A DNA stretch of 64,000 nucleotides. Origin: Thermoanaerobaculia bacterium (GTDB lineage: Bacteria > Acidobacteriota > Thermoanaerobaculia > Gp7-AA8). Below are positions 9,438 through 59,502 of the stretch, one piece after another. The stretch's first letter is position 1. Every line of letters begins with the position of its first letter. Under the pieces are notes generated by a model. The model did no database searches. It worked only from the letters and a program-made list of their open reading frames with translations, and was not told where the DNA came from. The DNA lies in contig DASVEE010000015.1 in assembly GCA_036380735.1 (NCBI GenBank), forward strand, positions 48,954 to 112,953. The letters run 5' to 3'. Position numbers and translations under genes: made by a program.

Positions 9438-9515
9438 GGCTGTTTTCGGTTGTTGGTTTTCGGTTGTTGGTTAAAAGCCAAACCGAAAACCAACAACCGA
9501 AATCCGAAAACCAAC
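9438..9515. repeat. Tandem-repeat-armed hairpin element (GGTTTTC/GGTTGTT heptamer arms) between sufU and sufT
   Basis: ggctgttttcggttgttggttttcggttgttgg-ttaaaagcc-aaaccgaaaaccaacaaccgaaatccgaaaaccaac; ends 1 nt before the sufT ATG. Confidence 0.85.
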
Positions 9516-9516
9516 T

Positions 9517-10065
9517 ATGCGCGAAGAAGTCGAATTCAACCGCAACACCGAAGCCATCATGATCCCCAGCGGTGAGCGTGTCCTGGTCCCGAAAGGGGCG
9601 CAGGGAACGATCACGCAGGCTCTCGGCGGCACGTACACGCTCATCACGGACCGCGGCCTCATGGTCCGCATCTCCGGCCGCGAAGTGGAAGCGATCGGCA
9701 AGACGCCGGTCGACGCCCCGGAAGTGCAGCCGTCGGAGCTGACCCCCGAGAAGCTCGAAGAGCTGATCTGGGACGCGCTCCGCACCTGCTTCGACCCCGA
9801 GATCCCGGTCAACATCGTCGACCTCGGCCTGGTCTATCTCTGCGAGCTCAATGACGTGGAAGAAGGCGTCCGCGACGTCCACATCAAGATGACCCTCACC
9901 GCCCCCGGCTGCGGCATGGGCCCGGTCCTCGCCGGCGACGTGAAGTCGAAAGTCGAAGCCATCCCCGGCATCCGCACCGCCGAAGTGGAAGTGGTCTTCG
10001 ACCCGGTGTGGGATCGCAGCATGATGTCCGATGCAGCGAAGCTGCAACTGGGCATGATGTGGTGA
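9517..10065 (+). CDS. sufT: Fe-S assembly protein SufT (DUF59/MIP18 family)
   Basis: FDPEIPVNIVDLGLVY...TLTAPGCGMG DUF59 signature with the SufT-type N-terminal extension; separated from sufU by a repeat hairpin. Confidence 0.75.
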   Translation: MREEVEFNRNTEAIMIPSGERVLVPKGAQGTITQALGGTYTLITDRGLMVRISGREVEAIGKTPVDAPEVQPSELTPEKLEELIWDALRTCFDPEIPVNIVDLGLVYLCELNDVEEGVRDVHIKMTLTAPGCGMGPVLAGDVKSKVEAIPGIRTAEVEVVFDPVWDRSMMSDAAKLQLGMMW

Positions 10066-10068
10066 GTA

Positions 10069-10170
10069 GGGCTCAGGGGTCAGGGCTCAGGGCTCAGGGG
10101 CTGCGCTACACGGACGATGACCGCGCATAGCGGAGCCCCCTGAGCCCTGGGCCCTGAGCCCTGGGCCCCC
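10069..10170. repeat. Tandem-repeat-armed hairpin element (GGGCTCA heptamer arms), core GGCTGCGCTACACGG...CCGCGCATAGCGGAGCC
   Basis: gggctcaggggtcagggctcagggctcagggg ... cccctgagccctgggccctgagccctgggccc. Confidence 0.85.
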
Positions 10171-10188
10171 GTCCGCTACAATGCCGCC

Positions 10189-10752
10189 ATGCCTTTTTGC
10201 GCCAACTGCGGTAGCTCCACGCCCGAAGTGTCTTACGCGCTCTGCCCGAGCTGCGGCAATCCTACGAACGGGGCGCCGCGGCCGATGACGTACTCCCCGG
10301 CGGCGCCGCGGCCGGGCGTCAGCAAGTGGGTGTTCGTCATCGTCGGGCTCTTCCTGCTGATCCCGTTCATGGGGATCGTCGCGGCGATCGCCATCCCGAA
10401 CTTCATGACCGCCATGCAGCGCTCGAAGCAGAAGCGCACGATGGCCGATATCCGCGGCGTCGCGATGAAGGTCGAGGAGTACGGGCTGAAGCACAACCGT
10501 TTTCCGGCCGATCTCGAGAGCGCCGGAATCACCGCGCCGAACGACGCCTGGATGCGGCCGCTCTGGTATACCTGCGTGCCGCAGGTGGAGTGCACCGGCT
10601 ATGCAATCGTGAGCATGGGCGCCGATGGCGCGCTCGAGCATGAGGACATCGCCGAGTATGTGGACGCAGGCGGGACGACGAACTTCAATTCCGACATCGT
10701 CTTCATCGATGGTAAGTTCGTGCAGTATCCCAACACAGTCCAGGTGGAGTAG
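10189..10752 (+). CDS. Zinc-ribbon protein fused to a membrane-anchored pseudopilin-like (GspG-like) domain, no prepilin cleavage motif
   Basis: N-terminal CxxC...CxxC (CANCGS...CPSCGN); TM helix then AIAIPNFMTAMQRSKQ and C-terminal ...IVSMGADG, resembling the GspG/pilin fold; lacks the G/FTLIE leader. Confidence 0.55.
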   Translation: MPFCANCGSSTPEVSYALCPSCGNPTNGAPRPMTYSPAAPRPGVSKWVFVIVGLFLLIPFMGIVAAIAIPNFMTAMQRSKQKRTMADIRGVAMKVEEYGLKHNRFPADLESAGITAPNDAWMRPLWYTCVPQVECTGYAIVSMGADGALEHEDIAEYVDAGGTTNFNSDIVFIDGKFVQYPNTVQVE

Positions 10753-12522: not shown

Positions 12523-14184
12523 CTAGCCGGATTCGCCGAGGCGAGTGAGACGGCGCTCGGCGAAACGAATAGGTATCACGGTCAGAGCGGCCGACAGCGT
12601 GAGCGCAGTCACCAGCGGCACCGCCGTCGCGATCCAACCGCTGTCGTCCTGCACGGAGAAGACGCGCCAGAAGAAATAGCGCATGATCGGCCGTGCCATC
12701 AGCACCATCATCGTCCCCACATAGCCCATCGAAAGCGCCATGTAGGCGAAGCCGCCGAGCGACAGGCCGACCTGCAGCGGGTTCTCGGCGTTGAACTGCG
12801 GCGACAGGGCGCCCATGCCGATGCCGAGGCTGACCAGCGTGAAGGAGAGCAGCGAAGCGCCGAACAGCGTGAACGCCCACACGGCCGGCCCGGCGCCGAG
12901 CATCGAGTTGGCCACCGCGGTGAGCACCAGCGCGAGCAGCGTCAACGGCGTGGCGTAGACGAGCGCCTTCACGCGCAGAAACTGCCGGTACGACACCGGC
13001 GCCGTCTGCAGCAGCCAGAACGCCTTCCCTTCGGACGAAACGGACGGATACGCGAAGCGGAGGCAGATCGCGGCCACGACGAAGCCGGCCATGCCGAGGT
13101 TGGCGTACGCGACGATCGTGGCGCGCGCGTCGCCGCCGAGCGGCAGCATGCGGATGTTGTAGAGGTAGATGAACATCAGCGCCGCCATGAGGAAGACCTG
13201 CGACCACTGCGCGACGTCGCGCCCCAGCGTGCGCACTTCCTTCCCGATCATGGCGCGCATCGGGAGATCGGCGCGCGCGAAGAGATGGTCGAGCAGCCAC
13301 GTGGCACGCGTGGCGCCGATCGCGACGGGCGCCATGCTTTCGCGCGCGCGGACGAAGGCCGTGAAGTAGATCGCGCGGCCGATGAGGGCGAAGGCGGTGA
13401 AGAGCAGCAGCGCCACGAGCCAGATCTTCGGCGGGAACAGCGTCGCTCCGCTCTGATCCGTCATCACCTGCGCCAGCGCGGTGCTCGGATAGACGCTCAT
13501 CGCCGGCAGCTCGATCTGCCGCAGCACGCGCACCACGTCATCGGTCCCCACCTCGGAGAAGAAGCGCTCCGGCCGCGCCATCCGGAACGCGACGACGGCG
13601 AACGTCAGGATGAGGATGGCGATCGTGGCCACGATCTGATGCACGCGGCGCACAGGAAACCAGCGCACGAGCACGAGGATCACGAGCGAAGCCAGCGAAA
13701 CGGGGATGGTGAGCAGCAGGAGGAGGTTCCCGACCGTGGTCGGATAGAACGTCCACGGCCGGTCGTACTGCCGCGCGTACGCGACGAAGATCGGCAGCAG
13801 GAAGGCGAAGACGATGGTCGCGCTCTGCGCGAGCGTCTTGAGCCAGCGCGCGAGCAGCACGCGCAGCCGCGAGCGTGGCGCCGCGTGGTAGAGGTCGAGA
13901 TCGAGATCCGCAAAGTACGACCCGATGGCGACCGTCATCGACGAGGAGAACAGCACGATCGTCGCGACGAGAAACACCATCGACAGCAGGTTGCGCAGGA
14001 TGCCGATGGCGAAGAACGGCGTGGTGGCCTCGATCTCCGCCGTGGCCCGGAACAGCCGCGCAAAGAGCACGAAGTCACCGATGAGAAAGCCGGCGAACAG
14101 CGCGCTCACAATGAGCGTCTTGAGCAGCATCGCCGCGTTGAACGGGCGGAGCTTGGCGAAGGTGAGGCGGAGGGACCACATCAA
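12523..14184 (-). CDS. Polytopic membrane protein, ABC-2-type exporter permease-like (about 12 TM), no adjacent ATPase
   Basis: 553 aa, two repeated six-TM halves; family assignment from hydropathy pattern only. Confidence 0.4.
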   Translation of the reverse strand: MMWSLRLTFAKLRPFNAAMLLKTLIVSALFAGFLIGDFVLFARLFRATAEIEATTPFFAIGILRNLLSMVFLVATIVLFSSSMTVAIGSYFADLDLDLYHAAPRSRLRVLLARWLKTLAQSATIVFAFLLPIFVAYARQYDRPWTFYPTTVGNLLLLLTIPVSLASLVILVLVRWFPVRRVHQIVATIAILILTFAVVAFRMARPERFFSEVGTDDVVRVLRQIELPAMSVYPSTALAQVMTDQSGATLFPPKIWLVALLLFTAFALIGRAIYFTAFVRARESMAPVAIGATRATWLLDHLFARADLPMRAMIGKEVRTLGRDVAQWSQVFLMAALMFIYLYNIRMLPLGGDARATIVAYANLGMAGFVVAAICLRFAYPSVSSEGKAFWLLQTAPVSYRQFLRVKALVYATPLTLLALVLTAVANSMLGAGPAVWAFTLFGASLLSFTLVSLGIGMGALSPQFNAENPLQVGLSLGGFAYMALSMGYVGTMMVLMARPIMRYFFWRVFSVQDDSGWIATAVPLVTALTLSAALTVIPIRFAERRLTRLGESG

Positions 14185-14213
14185 AGCGACCGTGGTGTGG
14201 TGAGGTGGGACAT

Positions 14214-14308
14214 GGTTTTCGGTTTTCGGTTTTTGGTTTCTGGTGCTGTGCTACGCGGTGAGTGTCGCGTGGCGCAGCACCGAAAACCAAAAACCGAAAA
14301 CCGAAAAC
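14214..14308. repeat. Tandem-repeat-armed hairpin element (GGTTTTC heptamer arms), core GCTGTGCTACGCGG...CGCGTGGCGCAGCAC
   Basis: ggttttcggttttcggtttttggtttctggtg ... caccgaaaaccaaaaaccgaaaaccgaaaac. Confidence 0.85.
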
Positions 14309-14311
14309 GCC

Positions 14312-15388
14312 TCACACGATCCCCTTCACTTCCTCAAACCACTGCATCATCGATTGCGTCCGCGCCGCGCGCTGTTTCGCGCGTTCCAGGCCCAGCTCGA
14401 GAAGGCGCTCGATGAGGCGGGGGTACTTCATCTCCGTGGCTTCCCACAGCTTGGGGTACATGGAGATGTTGGTGAAGCCCGGGATGGTGTTGATCTCGTT
14501 GATGAAGAGGCGGTTGGTGCCGCGCTCGAGGAAAAAGTCGACGCGGGCGAAGCCGGAGGCGCCGATCGCTTTGAATGCGGTGACGGCGTGGCGGCGGAAC
14601 TCCTCGACCTTCTCCTTCGGCAGCTTCGCCGGGATGAGGAGCTGCGATTTGTTCTCGACGTACTTGTCCATGTAGTCGTAGAACTCGGCGCCGGCGACGA
14701 TCTCGCCCGGGACGGACGCTTCGGGCTTGTCGGTGCCGAGGACGGAGACTTCAATCTCCCGGGCATCGAGGCCGCGCTCGACGAGGACCTTTTCGTCGAA
14801 GCGCAGCGCGTGCTCGATGGCTTTCCCCAGCTCCCCTTCGCCCTTCACTTTCGTCACGCCGACGGAGGAGCCGCTGTTCGCCGGCTTGACGAAGTACGGC
14901 AGGCGCAGCGCGTTGTTGATGGCGCGCGTGACACGTTCGCGCTCGCTCGTCCATTCGCGCTCGTGGACGGCGATGTGGTCGACCATCGGCAGCTTCGCGG
15001 CGGCGAACGCCTGCTTCATGTGCGCCTTGTCCATGCCGATGGCGGAGGAGGTGACGCTGCTGCCGAGATAGGGGAGCCCGAGGATCTCGAGGTAGCCCTG
15101 GAGCGAGCCGTCTTCGCCGCCGCCGCCGTGCACCAGCGGGAAGACGAGGTCGACCTCGACGCCGCGTACCCACTGCTCGAAGAAGAAGCCGGTATCGCCC
15201 TGCTCGCTCTTCTCTTCGCCGGCGAGGATGCGCGCGCTGCGCTCCGGCGCGATGAAGCGGCCGTCTTTCCCGATGCAGATTGGCGTCAGCTCGATGCGCG
15301 GCGGTGCGGCGCCCGCGACCGAGCGCGCGGAGAGGATGGAGACTTCATGCTCGGGGCTGCGGCCGCCGAAGAGGAGGATGACTTTCAT
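14312..15388 (-). CDS. ddl: D-alanine--D-alanine ligase
   Basis: MKVILLFGGRSPEHEVSILSARSV... and ATP-grasp motifs (FVKPANSGSSVGV). Confidence 0.9.
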   Translation of the reverse strand: MKVILLFGGRSPEHEVSILSARSVAGAAPPRIELTPICIGKDGRFIAPERSARILAGEEKSEQGDTGFFFEQWVRGVEVDLVFPLVHGGGGEDGSLQGYLEILGLPYLGSSVTSSAIGMDKAHMKQAFAAAKLPMVDHIAVHEREWTSERERVTRAINNALRLPYFVKPANSGSSVGVTKVKGEGELGKAIEHALRFDEKVLVERGLDAREIEVSVLGTDKPEASVPGEIVAGAEFYDYMDKYVENKSQLLIPAKLPKEKVEEFRRHAVTAFKAIGASGFARVDFFLERGTNRLFINEINTIPGFTNISMYPKLWEATEMKYPRLIERLLELGLERAKQRAARTQSMMQWFEEVKGIV

Positions 15389-15393
15389 TTGGC

Positions 15394-15473
15394 GTCGTTG
15401 TCCGTTGTCCGTTGTCCGTTTTCCGTGGCGCCCGGTGAAACCACGGACAACGGAAAACGGACAACGGACAACG
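15394..15473. repeat. Tandem-repeat-armed hairpin element (GTCCGTT heptamer arms)
   Basis: gtcgttgtccgttgtccgttgtccgttttccgtgg-cgcccggtgaaa-ccacggacaacggaaaacggacaacggacaacg. Confidence 0.85.
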
Positions 15474-15479
15474 CGTCAG

Positions 15480-17021: not shown

Positions 17022-17651
17022 TCAGAGCTCCGGCCGCGCATTGTAAAGCGGATTGCCGGACGGATCGCCGGGGCGATTGCTGAGCGGATCGATGCCTGCG
17101 CGGCGCAGCATCTGGAAAAGCGTCGCCAGCGGGAGCCCCACCACGTTCGTGTAGCTGCCGTGGATGGACTCGATGAACATGGCGCCGATGCCCTGCACGG
17201 CGTAGGCGCCGGCCTTATCCATCGGCTCGCCGGTGCTCACGTACCAGGCGATTTCGTCGTCGGAGAGCGGCAGCATGCGCACTTCCGACTCGGCCACGCG
17301 CGTCTCGTGGTGCTTCCGCTCGAGGTTCACCAGCGTCACGCCCGTGTAAACAATGTGGGTCTGGCCGGCGATGGTCTTCAGCATGCGCCGCGCGTCGGCT
17401 TCGTCGACAGGCTTTTCGAGGAGCTGCTCGCCGAGGAGGACGGTGGTGTCGGCGGCGATGACCCAGCGCGAGGGATGCTCCTGCGCCAGCGCCGCCGCTT
17501 TGTCGCGCGAGAGCCGCGCGACGTACTCCTCCGGTGCTTCTCCGTCCGCGCGCACTTCGGGGACGTGCGACGGCAGGACGTCGAAGTCGAGACCGATGGA
17601 CGCGAGCAGCTCGCGCCGCCGCGGCGAAGCGGAAGCCAGGATGAATTTCAC
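17022..17651 (-). CDS. maf: Maf-like nucleoside triphosphate pyrophosphatase
   Basis: KFILASASPRRRELL...; GTG start inferred; its start overlaps the stop of the upstream toxin gene. Confidence 0.8.
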   Translation of the reverse strand: MKFILASASPRRRELLASIGLDFDVLPSHVPEVRADGEAPEEYVARLSRDKAAALAQEHPSRWVIAADTTVLLGEQLLEKPVDEADARRMLKTIAGQTHIVYTGVTLVNLERKHHETRVAESEVRMLPLSDDEIAWYVSTGEPMDKAGAYAVQGIGAMFIESIHGSYTNVVGLPLATLFQMLRRAGIDPLSNRPGDPSGNPLYNARPEL

Positions 17652-17908
17652 CGGAGCGGTCTCTCCTCGATGCGCACGATGGCCAGGATCAGCACATACC
17701 GCGCCTCCGCCACGATCCGGTAGAGGATGCGCAGCCCGCCGATGCGATGGCTCCACAGGCCGCGCAACGGCTCGAAGAGGGGCGTGCCGACGATGGGGTC
17801 CTCGTCGATGATCTCCAGCGTCTTCATGACCAGGGCGCGCTCGTCGGAGTTGAGCGCTGCCCAGTCGTCGGCCACGGATTGGGCCAGGCGGAGGCGGTTA
17901 TGCCACAC
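17648..17908 (-). CDS. RelE/ParE-family type II toxin
   Basis: ...LEIIDEDPIVGTPLFEPLRGLWSHRIGGLRILYRIVAEARYVLILAIVRIEER; start trimmed to the GTG downstream of the repeat hairpin; the longer ORF-track N-terminus is repeat-encoded (TDNGPRTTDN). Confidence 0.65.
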   Translation of the reverse strand: MWHNRLRLAQSVADDWAALNSDERALVMKTLEIIDEDPIVGTPLFEPLRGLWSHRIGGLRILYRIVAEARYVLILAIVRIEERPLR

Positions 17909-17920
17909 ACGCCACCTCGG

Positions 17921-18013
17921 CCGGTTGTCCGTTGTCCGTGGTCCGTTGTCCGTGCTGGCGCTGCACGGACGCATAGCGCAGCACGGAAAACGGAAAACGG
18001 ACAACGGACAACG
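17921..18013. repeat. Tandem-repeat-armed hairpin element (GTCCGTT heptamer arms) between antitoxin and toxin genes
   Basis: ccggttgtccgttgtccgtggtccgttgtccgtgctg-gcgctgcacggacgcatagcgcag-cacggaaaacggaaaacggacaacggacaacg. Confidence 0.85.
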
Positions 18014-18019
18014 CGTCCC

Positions 18020-19223: not shown

Positions 19224-19330
19224 AAAGGACGGAAGGGACCGATGGACCGATCGGACAGACCGCGCAAGTCCGGGTGGGCGGGGTCCCATCCGTCCTATCG
19301 GTCATATACGTCCCATTCGTTCCATCGTCC
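19224..19330. repeat. Tandem-repeat-armed hairpin element (GGACCGAT / GTCCTAT-type arms)
   Basis: aaaggacggaagggaccgatggaccgatcggacag ... gggtcccatccgtcctatcggtcatatacgtcccattcgttccatcgtcc. Confidence 0.7.
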
Positions 19331-24362: not shown

Positions 24363-24371
24363 CCCGGCGAT

Positions 24372-37048: not shown

Positions 37049-38455
37049 ATGCGTATCCGCACTTTGACCGTTTTTCTTGCGTTCGCCCTGACGGCGGGCG
37101 TTCACGCCCAGAACACCGACATCGAGGCTCTGGCCGGGCTGCAGTTCAACTTCGGGAACCCCGGGGCCCGTTCGCTCGGCATGGGCGGCGCGTTCCTCGG
37201 GCTGGCTGACGATGCTTCGGCGGCCGAGGCGAATCCCGCCGGGTTGTCGATCCTGAGGAAGGCGGAGGTCTCGCTCGAGGTCCGCAACTACCTCGAGAAC
37301 CAGATCCTCACCACCAGCGGCACCTTCCCCGACTTCGAGCGCACCGCGTTCGGCCACCACAGCGACCGCGCCGTCATCAGCTTCGCCAGCGCCGTCGTCC
37401 CGGTGCGCAACTTCACCTTCGGCGCCTACTTCCACGAGCCGCTGCGCAACCAGGGCGCCGGGGCCGTCATCCCGCAGCGCAATCCGCTGACCGGACAGAT
37501 CGAGAAAGACCTCCCGGTCTTCTACATGGAGCAGCAGAACAACCAGCCGATCGGCGGGCCGCTCAGCTTCGAGGAGTGCGAAGCCGTCAAGGACCGCAAC
37601 AACGATCCGTTCTCCTGCCTCGGCTATGAGGTCTTCCCCTTCATCTCCGCGCTCGACGTCCAGCAGCGCACGTTCGGCGTCGCCGGTGCGTGGCAGGTGA
37701 CGCCGAAGTTCTCCGTCGGCGCCACCGCGCGCTACCACACGTTCAAAGAGGACGCGTTCACCTTCCGCATCGACCGCTTCTTCAACTTCGTCGGCTACGC
37801 CGTGCAGGCCACCGGCGATGTGAGTGAAGACGGCACCGAGATCGAGATCAAGGAAGAGACCGACTTCACCTTCACCGCCGGCTTCAAGTGGGCGCCGAGC
37901 GACAAGCTCAGCTTCGGCGGCGTGTACAAGAAGGGTCCGACCTTCGACGCGCCGACGTTCCTCGCCACCGACGCCACCGACCGTCTCTTCGTGCGCGTCG
38001 GCAACACCGAGTTCCACACGCCGGACGTGGCGGGCCTCGGCGTCTCGTACCGCCCGATCCCGGTGCTGACGATCAACTTCGACGCGGTGCACGTGAAGTA
38101 CACGAACCTCGTCGACGACTTCACCACGACCGTGGCCATCGGCGACCTCGATGAGCCGTACATCACCCACGACGTCACCGAGCTCCACCTCGGCGGCGAA
38201 TACTTCTTCGCCACCCGCATCCCGTTCGCCATCCGCGCCGGCTACTGGCGCGAGCCGGCCCACGCCATCGAGTACAACGGGCCCCTCGACACCCCGGACC
38301 GCATCGCGGCCGCGTTCATCTATCCCGAGGGGAAGGACCAGAACCACTTCTCCATCGGCGCCGGCATCGCGCTGCCGCGGTTCCAGATCGACTTTGCGTA
38401 CGACACGTCGGACACGTACAAGGTCGGATCGATCTCGATGGTGACTCGGTTCTAG
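37049..38455 (+). CDS. Outer-membrane beta-barrel protein, FadL/TodX-like (or PorV-like)
   Basis: Signal peptide, then GARSLGMGGAFLGLADDASAAEANPAGL, the conserved N-terminal hatch motif of the FadL/OMPP1 family. Confidence 0.6.
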   Translation: MRIRTLTVFLAFALTAGVHAQNTDIEALAGLQFNFGNPGARSLGMGGAFLGLADDASAAEANPAGLSILRKAEVSLEVRNYLENQILTTSGTFPDFERTAFGHHSDRAVISFASAVVPVRNFTFGAYFHEPLRNQGAGAVIPQRNPLTGQIEKDLPVFYMEQQNNQPIGGPLSFEECEAVKDRNNDPFSCLGYEVFPFISALDVQQRTFGVAGAWQVTPKFSVGATARYHTFKEDAFTFRIDRFFNFVGYAVQATGDVSEDGTEIEIKEETDFTFTAGFKWAPSDKLSFGGVYKKGPTFDAPTFLATDATDRLFVRVGNTEFHTPDVAGLGVSYRPIPVLTINFDAVHVKYTNLVDDFTTTVAIGDLDEPYITHDVTELHLGGEYFFATRIPFAIRAGYWREPAHAIEYNGPLDTPDRIAAAFIYPEGKDQNHFSIGAGIALPRFQIDFAYDTSDTYKVGSISMVTRF

Positions 38456-38545
38456 GAATTGAGAATTCCGAATTGAGAATTGAGAATTGGCTTCGCTGGC
38501 CGGTGCGCAGCTATCTCAATTCTCAATTCCCCAATTCTCAATTCC
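38456..38545. repeat. Tandem-repeat-armed hairpin element (GAATTGA heptamer arms), core GGCTTCGCTGGCCGGTGCGCAGC
   Basis: gaattgagaattccgaattgagaattgagaattg-gcttcgctggccggtgcgcagctatc-tcaattctcaattccccaattctcaattcc; the right arm overlaps the last codons of the VanX-like gene. Confidence 0.85.
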
Positions 38546-39230
38546 GGATCTCCGTCAGCGGCACGTTCATCAGGTCGAACCTCTGCCACCCGCCAAAGTC
38601 GTAGTGCCACCATTCCGACGGCAGCGGTTCGAAGCCGTGCTTCACCATCACGTCACGTAGCCTTGCGCGATTGACCAGCACGTCGGCCGACAGGTCGTTG
38701 AAGTCGTGGCGGGCTCTCGGGGTGAAGTCGTCGTACGGGGTGGGCATCGCCAGCTCTTCGCCGGTGCGCAGGTCGATCAGCGTCAGATCGACCGCCGCGC
38801 CGCGGTTGTGGCGCGAGCCCTTCGACGGATCGGCAACGTAGTCGGGGTTCTTGATCGGCTCCCACATCCGTTCCGTGATGCTGTAGGGGCGGTAGCCGTC
38901 GAAGACCTTCAGCCCGAGACCGTCGGCGGCGAGCTCCTGCTGCACGGCGGCGAGAGCTCGTGCGGCGGGCGCGCGGAGATACGCCTTTGCCACCGGGTAC
39001 AGCGTCGTCTTCATGAAGTTGTTGTCGGTGGCGTAGCGGATGTCGAGACGCACGCCGGGAATGGTGGAGAGGTCGACGAGACGCGTCTCCGCGTTAGCAG
39101 CGGCGAGCCGCTCGTACGTCGCGGCGTCAGGGACGACGCGCAGCCCGTATCGGTTGGCGGGGATGTCGGGCGCGGAGGCGCAGGCGGCAACCAGCAGCAG
39201 AAGCGGGATCAGACGTCGCATGCCGCGCAT
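38538..39230 (-). CDS. D-Ala-D-Ala dipeptidase (VanX/DdpX, peptidase M15D), secreted
   Basis: ...SRHNRGAAVDLTLID...E...HYDF motifs, so His/Asp/His zinc ligands are present; signal peptide; the last codons lie inside a repeat-hairpin arm. Confidence 0.7.
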   Translation of the reverse strand: MRGMRRLIPLLLLVAACASAPDIPANRYGLRVVPDAATYERLAAANAETRLVDLSTIPGVRLDIRYATDNNFMKTTLYPVAKAYLRAPAARALAAVQQELAADGLGLKVFDGYRPYSITERMWEPIKNPDYVADPSKGSRHNRGAAVDLTLIDLRTGEELAMPTPYDDFTPRARHDFNDLSADVLVNRARLRDVMVKHGFEPLPSEWWHYDFGGWQRFDLMNVPLTEIRN

Positions 39231-41282: not shown

Positions 41283-41288
41283 AAGCTT

Positions 41289-41392
41289 GAACGCAGAACG
41301 CAGAACGCAGAATGCAGAACGCAGAACGCAGAATTGAGAACGCGGTTGCCCCTTTTCAACGTTCTGCGTTCTGCGTTCTGCATTCTGCATTC
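41289..41392. repeat. Tandem-repeat-armed hairpin element (GAACGCA heptamer arms)
   Basis: gaacgcagaacgcagaacgcagaatgcagaacgcagaacgcag-aattgagaacgcggttgccccttttcaac-gttctgcgttctgcgttctgcattctgcattc. Confidence 0.85.
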
Positions 41393-41461
41393 ACGGTTCT
41401 GCCTTCAAACCCCGGCGCAATAGGACAGAGGCGCCCCACCGTTTAGAATGGCCGCCTCGCC

Positions 41462-42553: not shown

Positions 42554-43964
42554 CTTCATCGACGGGAAGTTCGTCCCGCCGGTCCACGGTCAGTACCTCG
42601 ACGACATCGGCCCGGCTACCGGCGAAGTGATCGCGCGGATTCCCGACAGCGATGCGGCGGACGTGGCGAACGCCGTAGCCGCGGCGGAGCGCGCCTTCAA
42701 GACGTGGTCGCGCACACCGGCCTCTGAGCGCTCGCGCCTGCTGCTGAAGCTCGCGGACCTGATCGAACAGCATCTCGACGAGCTGGCGCAGCTCGAGTCG
42801 CGCGACAACGGCAAGCCGGTGGCGCTGGCGAAGCGGATGGACATTCCCCGCGCCGTCGCCAACTTCCGCTTCTTCGCCACCGCCATCCTCCATCACTCCA
42901 CCGGCGCGCACGTCACGGACGGTGCGGCGCTGAACTACACGCTGCGTCATCCGCTCGGCGTCGCGGGGCTGATCTCGCCGTGGAACCTGCCGCTCTATCT
43001 GCTCTCATGGAAGATCGCGCCGGCCATCGCCTCCGGCAACACGTGCGTGGCGAAGCCGTCGGAGCTGACGCCGCTCACCGCCAACCGCATGGCGGAGCTG
43101 GCGAACGAAGCGGGCATCCCGCCGGGCGTCATCAACATCGTGCACGGCCTCGGCGCCAAAGCGGGGGCCGCGATCTGCGAGCATCCGGGCGTGCCGGTGA
43201 TCTCGTTCACCGGCGGCACGGTCACGGGACAGAAAGTTGCCGCCACCGCCGCGCCGATGTTCAAGAAGCTGTCGCTCGAGCTGGGAGGCAAGAACCCGAA
43301 CGTCATCTTCGCCGACGCCGATCTCGAGCAGGCGATCCCCACCTCGATCCAGTCGAGCTTCGCGAACCAGGGCGAGATCTGCCTTTGCGGCTCGCGTATC
43401 TTCGTCGAGCGCACCATCTACGATGAGTTCTGCGAGCACTTCGTCGCCGCGACGAAGAAGCTGCGCATCGGCGATCCGGCCGATGCGGCGACGGACGTCG
43501 GCGCGCTCATCTCGCAGGCGCACCTCGACAAAGTCCTCGGCTACATCGCCCTGGCCCAAGAAGAAGGCGGCGTCATTGCCGCCGGCGGCAACCGCGTCGA
43601 CCGTCCCGGTTACTTTGTCGAGCCGACGGTCGTCACAGGCCTCGGGTGCGAATGCCGCGTGCTGCAGGAAGAGATCTTCGGTCCCGTCGTCACGATCACG
43701 CCGTTCGAGTCGGAGGAGGAAGCGGTCGGCTTCGCCAACTCGACGAAGTACGGGCTGTCGGCGTCGCTCTGGACGCGCGACCTGCAGCGCGCCCACCGCG
43801 TCGCGGCGGCGCTCGACAGCGGCACCGTCTGGGTGAATTGCTGGCTCCTGCGCGACCTGCGTGTCCCCTTCGGCGGCGTGAAGGAGAGCGGCGTCGGACG
43901 CGAAGGCGGCTTTGAATCGCTGGAGTTTTTTACCGAAGCCAAGAACGTCTGCGTGAAACTTTAG
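42537..43964 (+). CDS. NAD(P)-dependent aldehyde dehydrogenase (2-aminomuconate / 2-hydroxymuconate semialdehyde dehydrogenase-like)
   Basis: ALDH glutamate and cysteine active-site motifs (LELGGKNP, FANQGEICLCGSRIF); context with the amnB-like genes. Confidence 0.85.
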   Translation: MQPHGNFIDGKFVPPVHGQYLDDIGPATGEVIARIPDSDAADVANAVAAAERAFKTWSRTPASERSRLLLKLADLIEQHLDELAQLESRDNGKPVALAKRMDIPRAVANFRFFATAILHHSTGAHVTDGAALNYTLRHPLGVAGLISPWNLPLYLLSWKIAPAIASGNTCVAKPSELTPLTANRMAELANEAGIPPGVINIVHGLGAKAGAAICEHPGVPVISFTGGTVTGQKVAATAAPMFKKLSLELGGKNPNVIFADADLEQAIPTSIQSSFANQGEICLCGSRIFVERTIYDEFCEHFVAATKKLRIGDPADAATDVGALISQAHLDKVLGYIALAQEEGGVIAAGGNRVDRPGYFVEPTVVTGLGCECRVLQEEIFGPVVTITPFESEEEAVGFANSTKYGLSASLWTRDLQRAHRVAAALDSGTVWVNCWLLRDLRVPFGGVKESGVGREGGFESLEFFTEAKNVCVKL

Positions 43965-44044
43965 GAATTGAGAATTGGCGAATTGAGAATTGAGAATCGC
44001 GTAGCGCAACCCATTCTCAATTCTCAATTCCGAATTCTCAATTG
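43965..44044. repeat. Tandem-repeat-armed hairpin element (GAATTGA heptamer arms), core CGCGTAGCGCAACCC
   Basis: gaattgagaattggcgaattgagaattgagaat-cgcgtagcgcaaccc-attctcaattctcaattccgaattctcaattg; ends 9 nt before the downstream ATG (GAGGAAG Shine-Dalgarno partly inside the arm). Confidence 0.85.
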
Positions 44045-44053
44045 AGGAAGCCC

Positions 44054-45295
44054 ATGACCGCCACCGCCCTTCCCTTCGCCATCCCTGCCGAACCGACGGC
44101 CACGTGGAGCATCGCCAAGCGCCTCACCTTCCGCTTTGCGTTCGTCTATCTGATCCTTTACAGCCTGCCGTTCCCGCTGATGATGCTGCGGGAGCCGTGG
44201 CAGAACCTGTGGAACGCCATCGTGCCGGCCGTGGCCACGAGCGTCTTCGGCGTCGCGGCCGACGTGCTGCCGAATGGGAGCGGGGACACGACGTGGAACT
44301 ACGTGCAGGTGTTCTGCTTCGCGTCGTTCGCGCTGCTGGCGACGCTGCTGTGGACCGCGCTCACGCGGGCGAAGAGCCACCCGAAGCTGTACGCGGCGCT
44401 GCGCATTTACGTGCGCTTCTCGCTGGCGATGGTGATGGTCCAGTACGGTGCGGTGAAGGTGATCCAGGCGCAGTTCCCGTCGCCGACACTCGAGCGGCTC
44501 GTGCAGCCGTACGGCGCCTCGTCACCGATGGGGATTCTCTGGACGTTCATGGGCGTCTCTGCCGCGTACAACCTCTTCGCCGGGCTCGGTGAAGTCATCG
44601 GTGGGGTGCTCCTCACGATGCGCCGCACCACCCTCGCCGGCGCGCTGCTGTCGCTGGCGGTGATGGGGCACGTGGCGATCCTCAACTACTGCTACGACGT
44701 GCCGGTGAAGCTCTTTTCGACGCACCTGGTGCTGATGGCGCTGTTCCTCGCCGCGCCCGACCTGCCGCGCGTGCTGCGCTTCTTCACCGAATGGAGCGGC
44801 GGCCACGGGAAGCGGTGGCTAGTCCTCGCCCGCACAGTCGTCGTCGCCGGCTTCGTCGGCTATTCGTTGTTCGTCGCTCAGCAGGGGCGGACGTTGTATG
44901 GCGATCTTTCACCGCGCTCGCCGCTGCGCGGCATCTGGAACGTCGACGAGCTGACGGTTGACGGCGTCAGCCGTCCGCCTCTGGTCACGGACGCCAGCCG
45001 CTGGCGCCGTGTCATCTTCGACAACCCGCGCTTTTCGTCGATCTACACGATGGATGACGTGCGCCAGCGCTTCGCGTCCACGCTGACGGGGAAAACGCTG
45101 GAGCTGACCGACCGTGATGATCCGCAGCGGAAGATCGTGCTGACGTACGCCCGCGTCGACGCGAAGACGCTGCGGCTCGAAGGGAAGGTCGACGGAAAAC
45201 AGATCGCCGCCACCTGCCACCTGCAGGACGAAGGGCAGTTCCTGCTGAAGACGCGCGGCTTCCACTGGACCAATGAGTACCCGTTCAACCGGTAG
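44054..45295 (+). CDS. Membrane protein (DoxX-like N-terminal TM domain plus about 140-aa soluble C-terminal domain), function unknown
   Basis: Multiple TM helices (FRFAFVYLILYSLPFPLMML...); embedded in the aromatic-amine cluster. Confidence 0.35.
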   Translation: MTATALPFAIPAEPTATWSIAKRLTFRFAFVYLILYSLPFPLMMLREPWQNLWNAIVPAVATSVFGVAADVLPNGSGDTTWNYVQVFCFASFALLATLLWTALTRAKSHPKLYAALRIYVRFSLAMVMVQYGAVKVIQAQFPSPTLERLVQPYGASSPMGILWTFMGVSAAYNLFAGLGEVIGGVLLTMRRTTLAGALLSLAVMGHVAILNYCYDVPVKLFSTHLVLMALFLAAPDLPRVLRFFTEWSGGHGKRWLVLARTVVVAGFVGYSLFVAQQGRTLYGDLSPRSPLRGIWNVDELTVDGVSRPPLVTDASRWRRVIFDNPRFSSIYTMDDVRQRFASTLTGKTLELTDRDDPQRKIVLTYARVDAKTLRLEGKVDGKQIAATCHLQDEGQFLLKTRGFHWTNEYPFNR

Positions 45296-45378
45296 GATCG
45301 GATTGAGGATGGCTTCGCTGGGCGGAACGTTTCGCCGAGCGCAGCCATCCTCAATCCTCAATCCTTCATCCTCAATCC
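45296..45378. repeat. Tandem-repeat-armed hairpin element (GGATTGA heptamer arms), core GGCTTCGCTGGGCGGAACGTTTCGCCGAGCGCAGCC
   Basis: ggatcggattgaggat ... atcctcaatcctcaatccttcatcctcaatcc; the right arm is longer than the left. Confidence 0.8.
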
Positions 45379-45384
45379 CGATAG

Positions 45385-46311: not shown

Positions 46312-46317
46312 CAACCC

Positions 46318-46414
46318 GAACGCAGAACGCAGAACGCAGAATGACGAATTGAGAAAGGGGACCGATCGTGGTGCGCAGCATTTCTTCGTTCGACGTTCTG
46401 CGTTCTGCGTTCTG
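46318..46414. repeat. Tandem-repeat-armed hairpin element (GAACGCA heptamer arms)
   Basis: gaacgcagaacgcagaacgcag-...ggtgcgcagc...-cgttctgcgttctgcgttctg. Confidence 0.85.
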
Positions 46415-46419
46415 ACTTC

Positions 46420-47880
46420 ATGAATCCAATCCTCAAGGCTTACGTAGTCCCTGGACAGCCCCACATTCTTCTCGGCGATCGGCAGAACGCCGGCTGGGCC
46501 AAACTGAAACATGCCTACGAACAAATCGGTCGTGAGATCGAACGGTCCGGGGCGGAGCTGATTCTCCTTTACTCGACGCAGTGGTTCTCCGTCATCGGGC
46601 ATCTGTTCCAGATCGATCCGCGGCCGAAGTGGACGCTGGTCGATCAGAACTGGTACGAGCTCGGGGAAATCCCTTACGAGTTTCGTGTCGATCCGAACTT
46701 CGGGGAGCTGTATTGCCGCACGGTGAAAGACGCGGGGATGCAGGCGGCGACGGTCGCGTATCACGGCTTTCCGATCGACACCGGGACGGTCGTGGCGCTG
46801 AAGCTGATGAACCCGAACAACGCGGTGCCGGCGTCGATGGTCTCGTGCAACATCTACGCGGAGCGCGAGGAGACCCGCGCCCTCGGCTTCGCCGCACGCA
46901 AAGCGATCGAGGCGTACGGGAAGAAGACGATCGTCGTCGCGGTGACGAACTTCTCGAACCGCTACGAGGTGGCGGAGATCGATCCGGCGAAGGACCGTAT
47001 CTCCTCGCAGAAGGATGACGAGTGGAACCGTAAGCTCCTCGAGATGTTCGCCGAGGGGCGGCTGGAGGATGTGGCGCAGGTGGCGCGTGATTTTGCGCGC
47101 GAGGCCAACGCCGACATGGGCTTCAAAGCCATCTGGTGGCTCGGCGCGGTGATGGGGGAGCACAACAGGTACGACGGCAAGGTGTGGGAGTACCAGCCTG
47201 TCTGGGGCACCGGCAGCGCCATCGTCGAGCTGACCCCGAACGACCGCAAGCAGATCGACTGGGAGAAAGAGTTCGACGAAGGACCGGTCCCGGTCTTCGA
47301 CAGCGCGGGCTCCGGCGGTTCCAGCGGCACCGGCCTGGAAACGCACAACGTGCTGGAACGCGGGCCCGATGTGCACCAGCAAAGCGAAATGAACTCCCAG
47401 GAGGATTCCTCGACGGGACGGTCCAGTCCGATGAGGTCCATCAGTCCTCTACGTGCGATCGGTCCTGATGACACCGCGGTGCGCACCGATCGCGCGCCTG
47501 CGCCGGTCGGCCCGTATCCGCACGCGCGGCGTGTCGGTGATTTCCTGTTCCTTTCCGGGATCGGGCCGCGCAAGCCGGGAACGGGGGAGATCCCGGGGCT
47601 CATTCGGGATGCGGCGGGCTCGGTGATCGATCACGACATCGAGGTGCAGACGCGCGCGTGCATCGAGAACATCCGCGCGATCCTGGAGGACGCGGGCAGC
47701 TCGCTGGAGAAGGTGCTCGACGTGACGGTGTACCTCACCGACATGCAGCGCGATTTCGACCGCTTCAACAAGGTCTACGCCGAGTACTTCGGGCAGATCC
47801 AGCCGACGCGCACGAGCGTCGGGGTCGATTCGCTGCCGACGCCGATCGCCGTGGAGTTGAAAGTGATCGCGGCGCGATGA
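46420..47880 (+). CDS. Fusion protein: LigB-family AmnA-like domain + Ser/Gly-rich linker + RidA/YjgF-family (AmnD-like 2-aminomuconate deaminase) domain
   Basis: N-terminal about 300 aa paralogous to the preceding gene (ILLYSTQWFSVIGH...); C-terminal about 130 aa with the RidA fold (PAPVGPYPHARRVGDFLFLSGIGP...VTVYLTDM...F); single ORF of 486 aa. Confidence 0.6.
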   Translation: MNPILKAYVVPGQPHILLGDRQNAGWAKLKHAYEQIGREIERSGAELILLYSTQWFSVIGHLFQIDPRPKWTLVDQNWYELGEIPYEFRVDPNFGELYCRTVKDAGMQAATVAYHGFPIDTGTVVALKLMNPNNAVPASMVSCNIYAEREETRALGFAARKAIEAYGKKTIVVAVTNFSNRYEVAEIDPAKDRISSQKDDEWNRKLLEMFAEGRLEDVAQVARDFAREANADMGFKAIWWLGAVMGEHNRYDGKVWEYQPVWGTGSAIVELTPNDRKQIDWEKEFDEGPVPVFDSAGSGGSSGTGLETHNVLERGPDVHQQSEMNSQEDSSTGRSSPMRSISPLRAIGPDDTAVRTDRAPAPVGPYPHARRVGDFLFLSGIGPRKPGTGEIPGLIRDAAGSVIDHDIEVQTRACIENIRAILEDAGSSLEKVLDVTVYLTDMQRDFDRFNKVYAEYFGQIQPTRTSVGVDSLPTPIAVELKVIAAR

Positions 47881-56432: not shown

Positions 56433-56515
56433 TCGGACGAATCGGACCTACAAGACCAAAGCGCCGGTCCCATTCGTCCTATAGGTCCTATTCGTCCTAT
56501 TTGTCCTATCGGACC
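56431..56515. repeat. Tandem-repeat-armed hairpin element (GGACGAAT / GTCCTAT-type arms)
   Basis: gatcggacgaatcggacctacaagacc-aaagcgccg-gtcccattcgtcctataggtcctattcgtcctatttgtcctatcggaccc. Confidence 0.75.
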
Positions 56516-57324: not shown

Positions 57325-58298
57325 CGCTTCCGGACGAAGTCGCGGTCGTCGTGAGCGAGTGGCTGGGTGAAGGTTGGACCGCGCAGCCACTCGCGGGCGA
57401 CGCCTCCGTGCGTGCGTACTTTCGCATCGCGCACGGCGGGCAGACGTACATGCTCGCGTATTACCCGGAAGAGGTGCGGTCGCAGCTGAAGCGTTTCCTG
57501 GACGCGTACGCTGCGGTCGCACCGAGCGGCCGCATCCCGGCAGTCCTGCACGACAGCGCATTCGCGGTGCTGCAGCACGACGTCGGCGACCGCACGCTCT
57601 TCGACATCCTGCACGAGCACCGCGACGAAGGTGTGCGTCTCTACCACGAGGCCATCGAGCTGCTCGTGGCGTTCCAGCAGGCGCGCGCGGAGGTGAACCC
57701 TCCGTTCACGGCGGAATCGTTCTTCGCGGAGCTGGAGATGGCGCGCGACTTCTACGCCGGTCAGCTCATGGGTGCGCCGTCCGAAGAGCTGAAAACACTT
57801 TTCGAGAAGCTGTCACAGAAAGTCGCACAGCATCCGTATGTTTTATGTCATCGCGATTTTCACGGACAAAACCTGCATGTTTTAAATGACACGGTTTATC
57901 TCATCGACTATCAGGATCTGAGAATGGGTCCGGATACGTACGATCTCGCCTCGCTGCTGCGCGACCGCGGCGTCGCGCGCATCCTCGGCGAAGCGACGGA
58001 GCTCGACCTGCTCGAGCACTACCGCCGCGTCACCGGCGCCGATGAGACCATCCGCCGCCGCTACTTCGAAACGCTGCTGCAACGCTCCGTCAAGATCCTC
58101 GGCACGTTCTCCAAGCAGCCGATCGTCCGCGGCCGCATGCACTATCTCAAGTTCATCCCCCCGACGCTCGAAAGCATCCGCCGCTGCCTCGACGAGCTGC
58201 CGGAGTTCGCCGCGCTCGGCCAGCAACTGCCGATGGAGTTCTCCCTGGAAGCGGCACAGGAACGCGCGCGCTCTCTCTACGAAGCCGTGCAATCATGA
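57321..58298 (+). CDS. Phosphotransferase-family kinase (APH fold; AmgK/anomeric sugar kinase-like)
   Basis: HRDFHGQNL catalytic loop and IDYQD motif. Confidence 0.6.
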   Translation: MTLPDEVAVVVSEWLGEGWTAQPLAGDASVRAYFRIAHGGQTYMLAYYPEEVRSQLKRFLDAYAAVAPSGRIPAVLHDSAFAVLQHDVGDRTLFDILHEHRDEGVRLYHEAIELLVAFQQARAEVNPPFTAESFFAELEMARDFYAGQLMGAPSEELKTLFEKLSQKVAQHPYVLCHRDFHGQNLHVLNDTVYLIDYQDLRMGPDTYDLASLLRDRGVARILGEATELDLLEHYRRVTGADETIRRRYFETLLQRSVKILGTFSKQPIVRGRMHYLKFIPPTLESIRRCLDELPEFAALGQQLPMEFSLEAAQERARSLYEAVQS

Positions 58299-58367
58299 TT
58301 TCCGCTTTCCGAGTGCCGGTTTCCGCGCTGCCTCGCGCCGGAAGCCGGCAATCGGAAATCCGAAATC
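58297..58367. repeat. Tandem-repeat-armed hairpin element (GATTTCC heptamer arms), core CGCTGCCTCGCG
   Basis: gatttccgctttccgagtgccggtttccg-cgctgcctcgcg-ccggaagccggcaatcggaaatccgaaatc; overlaps the stop of the kinase-like gene. Confidence 0.75.
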
Positions 58368-58379
58368 GAGGTAAGACAG

Positions 58380-59408
58380 ATGGCTAAACACAAGATCACC
58401 CTGCTCCCCGGCGACGGGATCGGCCCGGAAGTCACGGCCGCCGTGGTGCAGATCATCGAATGCGCGGGTGTCGACGTCGAATGGGAGAAGTACTTCGTCG
58501 GCGCGGAAGCGCTCACACGCTCCGGCGATCCGCTGCCGCAGGAAGTGCTCGACTCGATCCTGCGCAACAAGGTCGCGCTCAAAGGGCCGGTGACGACGCC
58601 CGTCGGAACCGGCTTCGCGTCGATCAACGTCCGGCTGCGCAAGACGCTCGACCTCTACTCGAACCTCCGCCCGGTGCGCTCGATGCCGAACATCAAGACG
58701 CGCTACGAGGACATCGATCTCGTGGTCGTGCGTGAGAACACCGAAAGCCTCTACGCGGGTCTCGAGCACGAGGTGATCCCCGGCGTCGTCGAGTCGCTGA
58801 AGATCATCACGGAGAAGGCGTCGACGCGCATCGCCCGCTTCGCGTTCGAGTACGCGCGCCAGCACGGACGCAAGCGCGTCACGGCCGTCCACAAGGCGAA
58901 CATCATGAAGCTGTCGGACGGCCTGTTCCTGCAGTGCTTCCGCAACGTGGCGAAGGAGTACCCGAACATCGAGGCGGACGACAAGATCGTCGACAACCTC
59001 TGCATGCAGCTCGTGACGAACCCGAACCAGTTCGACATCCTGCTGCTCGAGAACCTGTACGGCGACATCGTCTCCGACCTGACCGCGGGCCTCGTCGGCG
59101 GCCTGGGCGTCGTCGCCGGCGCGAACATCGGCGAGAACGGCGCGGTCTTCGAAGCGGTGCACGGCAGCGCGCCCGACATCGCCGGCCAGAACAAGGCGAA
59201 CCCGCTGGCGCTCCTGCAGTCGGCCGTCCTCATGCTGCATCACATCGGCGAGCCGCAGGCTGCCCAGCGCATCCACACCGCGATCCTCAAAGTGCTGGCC
59301 ATGGGACCGGAGCACCGCACGAAAGACATCGACGGCACCGGCTCCACCACCGACTTCACCGTGGCCATCTGTGACGTGCTGCGGAAAGGTGTGCGCTCCA
59401 CGGATTAG
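58380..59408 (+). CDS. NAD-dependent isocitrate/homoisocitrate dehydrogenase (IDH3-like beta-decarboxylating dehydrogenase)
   Basis: LLPGDGIGPEV, LKGPVTTPVG...LRKTLDLYSNLRPV and VRENTESLYAGLEH, closely matching the NAD-IDH pattern. Confidence 0.8.
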   Translation: MAKHKITLLPGDGIGPEVTAAVVQIIECAGVDVEWEKYFVGAEALTRSGDPLPQEVLDSILRNKVALKGPVTTPVGTGFASINVRLRKTLDLYSNLRPVRSMPNIKTRYEDIDLVVVRENTESLYAGLEHEVIPGVVESLKIITEKASTRIARFAFEYARQHGRKRVTAVHKANIMKLSDGLFLQCFRNVAKEYPNIEADDKIVDNLCMQLVTNPNQFDILLLENLYGDIVSDLTAGLVGGLGVVAGANIGENGAVFEAVHGSAPDIAGQNKANPLALLQSAVLMLHHIGEPQAAQRIHTAILKVLAMGPEHRTKDIDGTGSTTDFTVAICDVLRKGVRSTD

Positions 59409-59416
59409 CCTCGACC

Positions 59417-59502
59417 GGATTGAGGATTGAGGATGGAGGATCGAGGAAAGAAGCCTGGCCATGCGCAGCGATCCTCAATCCTCGATTCCCGATCCTCAAT
59501 CC
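59417..59502. repeat. Tandem-repeat-armed hairpin element (GGATTGA heptamer arms), core AAGCCTGGCCATGCGCAGCG
   Basis: ggattgaggattgaggatggaggatcgagga ... atcctcaatcctcgattcccgatcctcaatcc. Confidence 0.85.

Follow-up and report, generated by a model that had tools for sequence, protein, structure and literature searches.

The 64-kb window considered here, by which we mean the whole stretch of DNA analysed, has a G+C content of 65%, and the nearest homologues of its proteins lie in Thermoanaerobaculia/Acidobacteriota metagenome-assembled genomes (MAGs) and in contigs from soil metagenomes. Its intergenic palindromes fall into two classes, hairpins of tandem heptamers and hairpins of tandem nonamers, the former being our main subject. 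Repeat scans combined with direct reading locate 14 heptamer hairpins, every one of them between protein-coding genes: 11 between co-directional, two between convergent and one between divergent genes, with several reaching from the upstream stop codon to the next start codon and so occupying the entire spacer. Their arms of 25-45 nt give stems of 25-45 bp, and their RNA-fold z-scores, taken against 200 shuffles, range from -5.2 to -14.2, with 0/200 shuffles folding equally well. Thirteen of these copies had been listed in an earlier, sequence-only reading of the window, and all 13 are present, with boundaries that move by 0-3 nt; the fourteenth (10066-10170) is new.

Families were assigned by the sharing of exact 12-mers on either strand, with no judgement by eye. 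This places the 14 elements in six families, A (9438, 14212), B (15394, 17921), C (22949, 26702, 27914), D (38454, 43963), E (41285, 46316) and F (45294, 59415), plus the singleton X (10066), and thereby returns the same-unit pairs and triplets proposed in the sequence-only reading. The proposal that same-unit copies cluster locally also exceeds chance within the window, to which the permutation and Fisher statistics on these hairpins are confined. The mean same-family distance is 5.2 kb against 18.6 kb under the null, a value matched or undercut in 54 of 200,000 label permutations (p ~3e-4), and same-unit pairs make up 7/20 of pairs closer than 6 kb, 1/20 of those at 6-15 kb and 0/51 of those beyond 15 kb (Fisher p = 6.6e-5). 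Pairs interleave, as had also been noted, in the order D1, E1, D2, F1, E2. Copies of one family have 14-mers or longer, unit order and terminal motifs in common, with no homology in their flanks. The unit families are real subfamilies, and same-unit copies are local. They group further into two super-families, A/B at 9-18 kb and C-F at 23-60 kb; arm sequences are wholly different between families, no 10-mer being common to A, B, X and the C-F group, and the A and B units stand one base apart (GTTTTCG vs GTTTTCC).

At the left of the window, A1 (9438..9516, arms GGTTTTC/GGTTGTT, z = -7.8) is the entire spacer between a NifU-like gene (8985-9437, +) and an FeS-assembly gene (9517-10065, +), after which comes X (10066..10170, arms GGGCTCA/GGGGTCA, z = -10.1), the copy missing from the earlier list. 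A2 (14212..14310, arms GGTTTTC, z = -14.2) lies between two minus-strand genes, an ABC_tran_2 gene (12523-14184) and ddl (14312-15388), and B1 (15394..15475, arms GTCCGTT, equivalent to GTTGTCC/GTTTTCC, z = -7.4) between ddl and an MlaD-like gene (15480-17018, -). B2 (17921..18015, z = -9.5) has the B1 unit GTCCGTT and stands between a phd antitoxin gene (18020-18277, -) and a parE toxin gene (17648 to about 17910, -). The hairpin thus splits a type II toxin-antitoxin pair (window 17648-18277). Since the longest parE open reading frame (ORF) traverses the hairpin, the true parE start probably lies downstream of B2.

Across families C, D, E and F a GAATTGA unit adjoins the loop of every element. 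C1 (22949..23090, outer units GAATGAA/GAATTTC, loop-proximal unit GAATTGA, z = -8.1) lies between convergent genes (20731-22947, + and 23103-23576, -). C2 (26702..26807, units GAATTTC/GAATGAA, z = -8.2) occupies the divergent spacer between a Ser/Thr kinase gene (24372-26684, -) and an MglA-like GTPase gene (26913-27911, +), and C3 (27914..28012, units GAATTTC/GAATGAA as in C1 and C2, z = -6.1) begins 3 nt past the stop codon of the latter, upstream of a methyltransferase gene (28073-28786, +); C2 and C3 do flank the MglA-like gene and nothing else, as the sequence-only reading held. Three hairpins begin on a TAG stop codon: D1 (38454..38548, GAATTGA) on that of a Toluene_X gene, in a spacer convergent with an M15 peptidase gene; D2 (43963..44046, GAATTGA) on that of an aldehyde dehydrogenase gene; and F1 (45294..45380, GGATTGA) on that of a gene here called gX (44054-45295). 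E1 (41285..41410, outer GAACGCA/GAATGCA, inner GAATTGA, z = -12.9) is found downstream of an inserted polysaccharide-deacetylase gene (40518-41282), E2 (46316..46422, outer GAACGCA, inner GAATTGA) at the LigB-LigB-RidA junction, and F2 (59415..59506, GGATTGA/GGATCGA, z = -5.2) between an isocitrate/isopropylmalate dehydrogenase gene (58380-59408, +) and a DUF309 gene (59461-59838, +).

None of the window hairpins matches an Rfam family at gathering thresholds, their E-value matches being generic microRNA-like hairpin models far below threshold, and Rfam finds no rRNA in the window; the hairpins, all between protein-coding genes, are not placed in a 23S rRNA gene (helix 25 or 45). Direct reading finds no T-run 3' of any of the 14 elements on either strand. 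Their interpretation as intrinsic (Rho-independent) terminators was rejected because of this absence of T-runs; many elements, moreover, abut the next start codon.

Empty slots and the cassette at the LigB-LigB-RidA junction

Two relatives are collinear with window 37-55 kb, a MAG contig whose LigB has 90% amino acid (aa) identity (L001) and a more distant contig (L002), and neither carries heptamer or nonamer arrays across that region. E2 is a clean insertion of ~100 nt between LigB and LigB-RidA, which overlap or abut in L001 and L002. Among collinear relatives the D1 slot is free of arrays in 11/13, D2 in 12/12, F1 in 19/20 and E1 in 24/25 (occupied in 2/13, 0/12, 1/20 and 1/25, respectively); the neighbouring LigB-LigB-RidA slot, hereafter the hub, bears heptamer arrays in 19/36 collinear soil relatives, with xxATTGA units. 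Since the D2, F1, D1 and E1 slots are with few exceptions vacant among relatives, these insertions occurred in the present lineage, and the units they brought belong to the local xxATTGA family. The window hairpins are insertions, and their locality is best read as fresh insertion close to a related copy. The closest relative, L113 (11.9% nucleotide divergence in LigB), has at the LigB junction a full element of the unit GGATTGA, which is that of F1 and F2, and relatives with an occupied neighbouring slot have there the unit of their own hub element or a close variant (AAATTGA in both positions in L112/L114, AAATTGA beside GGATTGA in L162). Over the soil relatives, 9/37 pairs less than 4 kb apart share a unit against 0/22 at 4 kb or more (p = 0.02, the loci being non-independent). 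The sequence-only reading had offered local duplication or gene conversion to explain the pattern; empty slots and hub units sustain local propagation with subfamilies, and leave conversion as a partial alternative.

The hub was explored through a metagenome scan with LigB, which gave 80 soil loci at 87-93% aa identity. Twelve of these loci have an uninterrupted, overlapping LigB stop/LigB-RidA start, as does the outgroup L002. Most occupied alleles are 390-510 nt long: a left array, with AAATTGA, GAATTGA or GGATTGA as its unit, precedes an ORF of ~120 aa, which an inverted array follows. This cassette sits at gene boundaries and often splits an overlapping stop/start. The ORF encodes a four-helix-bundle protein (TIGR02436, E = 1.8e-26; PF05635, "23S rRNA-intervening sequence protein", E = 1.3e-20) that also matches PDB 2RLD, with no transposase domain among its domain and structure matches. 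Homologues with 62-75% identity are found at this junction in other Acidobacteriota too, between GAATTGA/GAATTGT or GGATTGA arms, again xxATTGA arrays; the cassette has thus resided here for long, with a change of its arm unit in situ. Indeed, the repeat unit varies between lineages of the resident element, and the ORF-adjacent unit (G/A)(G/A)ATTGA, which overlaps the apparent TTG start of the ORF, is kept. Heptamer arrays have been co-opted as coding sequence at this junction in L141, L163, L164 and L166: some of these relatives have the LigB stop codon inside the left array, and others have a LigB-RidA N-terminus that the right array encodes (e.g. ATGACCCAATCCTCAATCC...).

Alleles at the junction form a size series of 506, about 450, 312 (with a truncated ORF), 110 (L143), 108 (E2 of the window) and 44 nt (a stub in L178), which we read as progressive internal deletion of the ORF. 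The loop of E2 retains the 5' end of the ORF (GAGAAAGGGGACCGA vs GAGAAAAGGCACCGAC in L113), and the loops of both E2 and L143 begin GAGAAAGGGG(A)C(C)GA, matching the same L113 ORF 5' end. As the first ORF bases are retained in its loop, E2 is an ORF-less derivative of the cassette; the alignment of the E2 and L143 junctions is the sole source of this loop-to-ORF link. Just right of E2, at 46420..46440 (+), lies ATGAATCCAATCCTCAAGG, now the first codons of LigB-RidA; L113 carries the matching CATGAATCAATCCTCAA at its junction of ORF and right arm, and the window copy may be a relic of an older arm of the GGATTGA type.

Other repeats are found around the orthologous D1 slot. L001, the closest relative derived from a genome, has there (L001:1117-1344) a different, non-periodic hairpin with 27-bp arms (GGGGTCAGGTCTTGATTTTTGCGTTTC...) in two tandem copies, so different palindromic elements colonise the same convergent spacer in different lineages. 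A Thermoanaerobaculia relative (L191/L192:3882-4106) has two abutting arrays with a period of 21 nt, TCCTTAAATTTTAAGGATCGG x5.7 and CTTCAACTTTAAGAACGATCG x5.6, in the spacer adjoining the M15 peptidase gene, near the D1 slot.

Other lineages and the tandem-nonamer class

Inverted heptamer arrays with a lineage-specific unit flank four-helix-bundle genes in six phyla. An Ignavibacteria MAG (L041) has the gene between inverted arrays of CGATTGT, and a deltaproteobacterial MAG (L193) has it within arrays of AATGTAG outside and AATTGAG inside; the same architecture is present on plasmids of isolates of Nostoc punctiforme (GTCGGAG), Planktothrix (AATCCCC/AATCGTA), Chlorohelix (GAAGGAT/GAATTAT) and Treponema. 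GAATTGA beside the interior is also kept by full cassettes of other phyla. The Nostoc punctiforme plasmid pNPUN01, a complete replicon of 354.6 kb of which 350 kb were analysed, provided a whole-replicon label-permutation test. It carries 14 heptamer elements, all three of its annotated four-helix-bundle genes are bracketed by inverted arrays with solo hairpins nearby, and same-unit pairs make up 7/15 of pairs closer than 15 kb vs 2/76 beyond (314/20,000 permutations, p = 0.016).

Plasmid four-helix-bundle genes are wedged in defence operons of the types cas2-cas1, helicase-N6-methylase and drmD-pglX on plasmids of Anabaena cylindrica, Chlorohelix and Planktothrix (L195, L198, L199). By tblastn, 31 plasmids have a four-helix-bundle match, 23 of them from cyanobacterial genera, including 16 from Nostoc. 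A plasmid of Chondrinema litorale (L197) has TAACTGA-like motifs in the flanks of its four-helix-bundle gene, which may connect the TAACTGA direct repeats (PMC4679880) to the same class of element.

The second palindrome class of the window, built from the nonamers GGACNNATN/GTCCTATNN in tandem, occurs at roughly the density of the heptamer hairpins and lies in the same intergenic regions. Nonamer hairpins are at 775-884, 3629-3755, 19236-19330, 32176-32296, 36958-37022 and 40481-40579, and single nonamer arrays at 20876-20912, 24315-24364, 56466-56509 and 61277-61310. The pattern GTCCTATNNGTCCTATNNGTCC recovers >104 stretches in genome contigs from >10 phyla, mostly intergenic-looking and often hairpins, and no Rfam family matches the class. 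Nonamer arrays lie inside or adjoin heptamer arrays in L028 and L038. The heptamer GACAGAT of the Coxiella 23S rRNA intervening sequence (IVS) is contained in the window nonamer unit GGACAGATA (3649-3657), which may be coincidence or a hint of kinship between nonamer and heptamer arrays.

Origin of the hairpins

We favour, as reasonably probable, an origin of the 14 hairpins as ORF-less descendants of an IVS-type palindromic selfish cassette that seeds copies locally. The full cassette comprises a tandem-heptamer run, a gene for a four-helix-bundle protein of ~120 aa (TIGR02436/PF05635, S23p/Avd-like) and an inverted heptamer run. A resident cassette would seed copies into nearby gene boundaries, and these copies would then lose their ORFs. 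The arms would drift by slippage and by copying between the two arms of the palindrome, through which each lineage would gain a private unit, and since new copies would be placed preferentially 1-15 kb from their parent, same-unit pairs and triplets would arise locally. The long-resident element at the LigB-LigB-RidA junction, now E2, may in this way have seeded D1, D2, F1, E1 and F2. In transcripts, by analogy with rRNA IVSs, their long perfect stems would be substrates of ribonuclease III (RNase III), and insertion between cistrons would be tolerable because RNase III would cut them. For the copying step our preferred guess is a hairpin or single-stranded DNA event associated with the replication fork, in which the four-helix-bundle protein may or may not assist. 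A bolder proposal, which we hold to be doubtful as it stands, is that the four-helix-bundle protein (S23p/Avd-like, TIGR02436) is the specificity or mobility factor of a widespread and unrecognised group of palindromic selfish elements with fast-evolving heptamer-array ends, each protein lineage recognising its own unit and promoting short-range copying of stems. If true, this would explain the cyanobacterial short tandemly repeated repetitive sequences (STRRs), the ORF-bearing rRNA intervening sequences and the present hairpin swarms together.

A number of observations weigh against an origin by local seeding. The window has no four-helix-bundle ORF or remnant of at least 35 aa detectable with a narrow hidden Markov model, and as it is without a PF05635/TIGR02436 ORF its hairpins are classed as derivatives and not as full members. 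For the hairpins other than E2, the apparent link to the cassette comes from shared arms, the inner GAATTGA and short loop motifs; when window hairpins are compared with full-length cassettes by blastn-short the arms dominate, and the loop matches are too short for significance. No transposase, clear target-site duplication or mobility intermediate was identified, the only possible target duplication being TGA/ATGA at E2. Empty, full and ORF-less alleles are interspersed in a crude tree of LigB (unweighted pair group method with arithmetic mean), which fits recurrent insertion, precise loss or recombination alike, and both a single and a repeated insertion at the hub are compatible with such a tree. 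In other genomes same-unit pairs amount to 4/15 across contigs of one genome vs 6/26 within 8 kb, and elements of the unit AAAGCAG lie ~277 kb apart in the acidobacterial contig QHVT01000005.1; because of these copies on other contigs and at long range, unit families are not purely local. A contrast within and between loci of other genomes (6/26 vs 18/1744), taken as a replication of the locality, was withdrawn, since the same-genome control of 4/15 means that it reflects genome-level unit families. Finally, the loops do not follow the arms. Pairs with the same arms have dissimilar loops (D1 and D2 share arms and not loops), and loops resemble each other across arm families, with scores of 27 for D1-F1 and 24 for X-B2 against a 99.9% null of 23.4. 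D1, F1, C2 and C3 form one group of loops alike above this null and X, A2 and B2 another, the F1 loop being most similar to that of D1. Simple copy-paste of entire hairpins does not predict this discordance, which is compatible both with ORF losses that took place independently in full copies inserted one by one and with arm conversion between neighbours.

The latter option, in which gene conversion between neighbours may explain the different histories of loop and arm, can be extended into an alternative to local seeding. Elements would insert independently with any unit, after which gene conversion or template switching would equalise the arms of neighbours, with no local transposition. The D1 loop, which matches those of F1, C2 and C3 and not that of D2, is what such homogenisation would leave, and the difference in unit between orthologous elements at one slot shows that arms turn over in place. 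Independent ORF loss, of which intermediates are seen, explains the loop differences equally well, and the D2, F1, D1 and E1 slots, nearly always empty in relatives, received copies already in the local unit family. We therefore regard homogenisation as unlikely, though credible. Growth of each hairpin in place from a local 7-nt seed by slippage and fold-back synthesis, with likeness due to chance or to similar flanks, has in our view a very slim chance of being correct. Among long simple repeats, tandem heptanucleotides are in many bacteria the most abundant, and slippage is given as their cause (Mrazek 2007, in the account given by PMC4679880), and in some relatives the right arm continues in phase into the gene start (ATCCTCAAGG). 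Yet chance is rejected by the permutation test, copies of a family agree in unit order, terminal motifs and stretches of 14 nt or more without homology in their flanks, and GAATTGA is kept beside the loop in all C, D, E and F elements and in full cassettes of other phyla.

A selected function, in which same-unit neighbours pair as RNA or DNA or bind one factor and so coordinate processing, termination or looping, with units kept matched, would suit the 11/14 hairpins whose neighbouring genes are co-directional, many of which take up all the space from stop to start, and stems long enough to be RNase III substrates, as shown for rRNA IVS stems (PMC4990558); for the heptamer hairpins of cyanobacteria, an effect on the stability of transcripts or on the coupling of translation has been proposed (PMC2670836). 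The members of a pair, however, often differ in strand or transcription unit (A1/A2, C1/C2, D1/D2), relatives that have the same genes leave these slots empty, and units differ between orthologous elements, which argues against a conserved sequence-specific role and makes such a function very unlikely. The sequence-only reading had also raised cassette-like bracketing of gene blocks, that is, unit-matched hairpins as the ends of composite mobile units moving one to six genes. Hairpin pairs do flank gene blocks, and two single genes that are extra relative to L001 (40518-41282 and 44054-45295) are each flanked by hairpins. The check it called for, whether bracketed blocks move as units in relatives, went against it: L001, L002 and dozens of soil relatives that lack the hairpins have the blocks in collinear arrangement, with the D1-D2 block (M15 peptidase, luciferase-like, asparaginase II, aldehyde dehydrogenase) in the same order and the E1-E2 block likewise retained. 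Since the enclosed blocks are ancestral synteny that exists without hairpins, gene-block cassettes are not supported. The hairpins around the two extra genes are also mismatched (a nonamer hairpin with GAACGCA, and GAATTGA with GGATTGA), the gX-LigB junction is empty in 19 of the 20 relatives that have gX, and pairs interleave, unlike nested cassettes; we find this form of bracketing barely credible. Bracketing follows from elements occupying successive intergenic slots, and the only true cassette is the element itself, a four-helix-bundle gene between two inverted heptamer arrays.

As to the two extra genes, their role as hairpin cargo was rejected, gX being widespread without hairpins. gX (44054-45295) has no Pfam or NCBIfam match, shows 41-57% identity in relatives whose LigB is ~90% identical, and is variably present among relatives, with duplications in L152 and L187. 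The polysaccharide-deacetylase gene (40518-41282), flanked by a nonamer hairpin and E1, is missing from collinear relatives.

Comparison with known systems

The closest counterpart of the full cassette is the ORF-bearing 23S rRNA IVS of Coxiella burnetii and Leptospira, which has an ORF of the cassette's protein family (PF05635/TIGR02436) in a loop closed by terminal inverted repeats as its long stem, tandem heptamers in the stem region, ORF decay by deletion and a sporadic distribution of selfish type. The Coxiella IVS is 428 nt long, carries an S23p ORF within a loop whose 28-bp inverted-repeat stem is cut by RNase III, and has at its 5' end two to three tandem GACAGAT heptamers whose number varies between strains, the ORF being in decay (PMC4990558). 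Cleavage of the stem by RNase III is demonstrated for the IVS only (PMC4990558). The window hairpins have the long stable stem and the stem heptamers of an IVS and lack its internal ORF and its 23S rRNA location. Unlike IVSs, the present elements lie between protein-coding genes and not in helix 45 of 23S rRNA, their arms are almost wholly heptamers with a unit that differs from copy to copy, and ORF-less hairpins far outnumber full copies (14 in 64 kb, none with an ORF). Local clustering of same-unit copies has not been described for IVSs.

The solo hairpins are reminiscent of the cyanobacterial STRRs. STRR heptamer sequences were reportedly described by Mazel in 1990, an STRR in RNase P RNA by Vioque in 1997 and small dispersed repeats in Nostoc by Elhai in 2008. 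STRRs are 7-bp tandem repeats of intergenic and intercistronic spacers, for example hupS-hupL, that form hairpins of unknown function (PMC2670836). The window elements are likewise tandem 7-bp intergenic repeats folding into hairpins, and on pNPUN01 such arrays bracket four-helix-bundle genes. In contrast, STRRs are described as a few fixed heptamers of heterocystous cyanobacteria, and here a Thermoanaerobaculia-like acidobacterium has different units, in seven unit families within 64 kb. Our literature search found no paper that links STRRs to four-helix-bundle genes or that joins STRRs, IVSs and hairpins of this kind.

Repetitive extragenic palindromic (REP) sequences and REPINs are, like the present elements, abundant extragenic palindromes between genes, REPINs being inverted doublets that fold into long hairpins and whose copies evolve as a population inside a genome (PMC3116915, PMC2817692, PMC3733652). 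The remark in the sequence-only reading that the pattern is unlike classical REP systems was fair: neither a conserved REP sequence nor a GTAG/CGTC head is present, the arms being tandem heptamers of variable unit, and the associated gene encodes a four-helix-bundle protein and not a tyrosine transposase of the IS200/IS605 type. No REP-associated tyrosine transposase was found among about 30 window proteins scanned with Pfam. [quoted passage not shown] Unlike that of MITEs, the parent here has no recognisable transposase, clear target-site duplications are absent, and the terminal repeats are periodic and fast-evolving. The TAACTGA heptamer repeats of Beggiatoaceae, Cyanobacteria and Bacteroidetes share with the present elements intergenic tandem heptamers near start codons and a patchy distribution across phyla; they almost always form direct repeats with a single unvarying unit, one case in 170 being inverted, and no ORF association or hairpin architecture is reported for them (PMC4679880).

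Taken together, the present elements combine an IVS-type four-helix-bundle cassette with STRR-like solo stems, swarming in an acidobacterial chromosome with an unusually clear, unit-tagged local pattern. Because they lie between cistrons of operons, including toxin-antitoxin pairs and plasmid defence operons, the hairpins likely affect mRNA processing and the annotation of gene boundaries, and in relatives the arrays supply stop codons and N-termini. The comparison brings into one architecture, present in at least seven phyla, three puzzles that have long been separate, namely the origin of STRR hairpins, the purpose and spread of four-helix-bundle/IVS genes and the movement of rRNA intervening sequences. 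It adds a population-genetic signature, a private repeat unit per lineage with kilobase-scale spread around a resident copy, and turns a vague class of repeats into a testable model of a selfish element.

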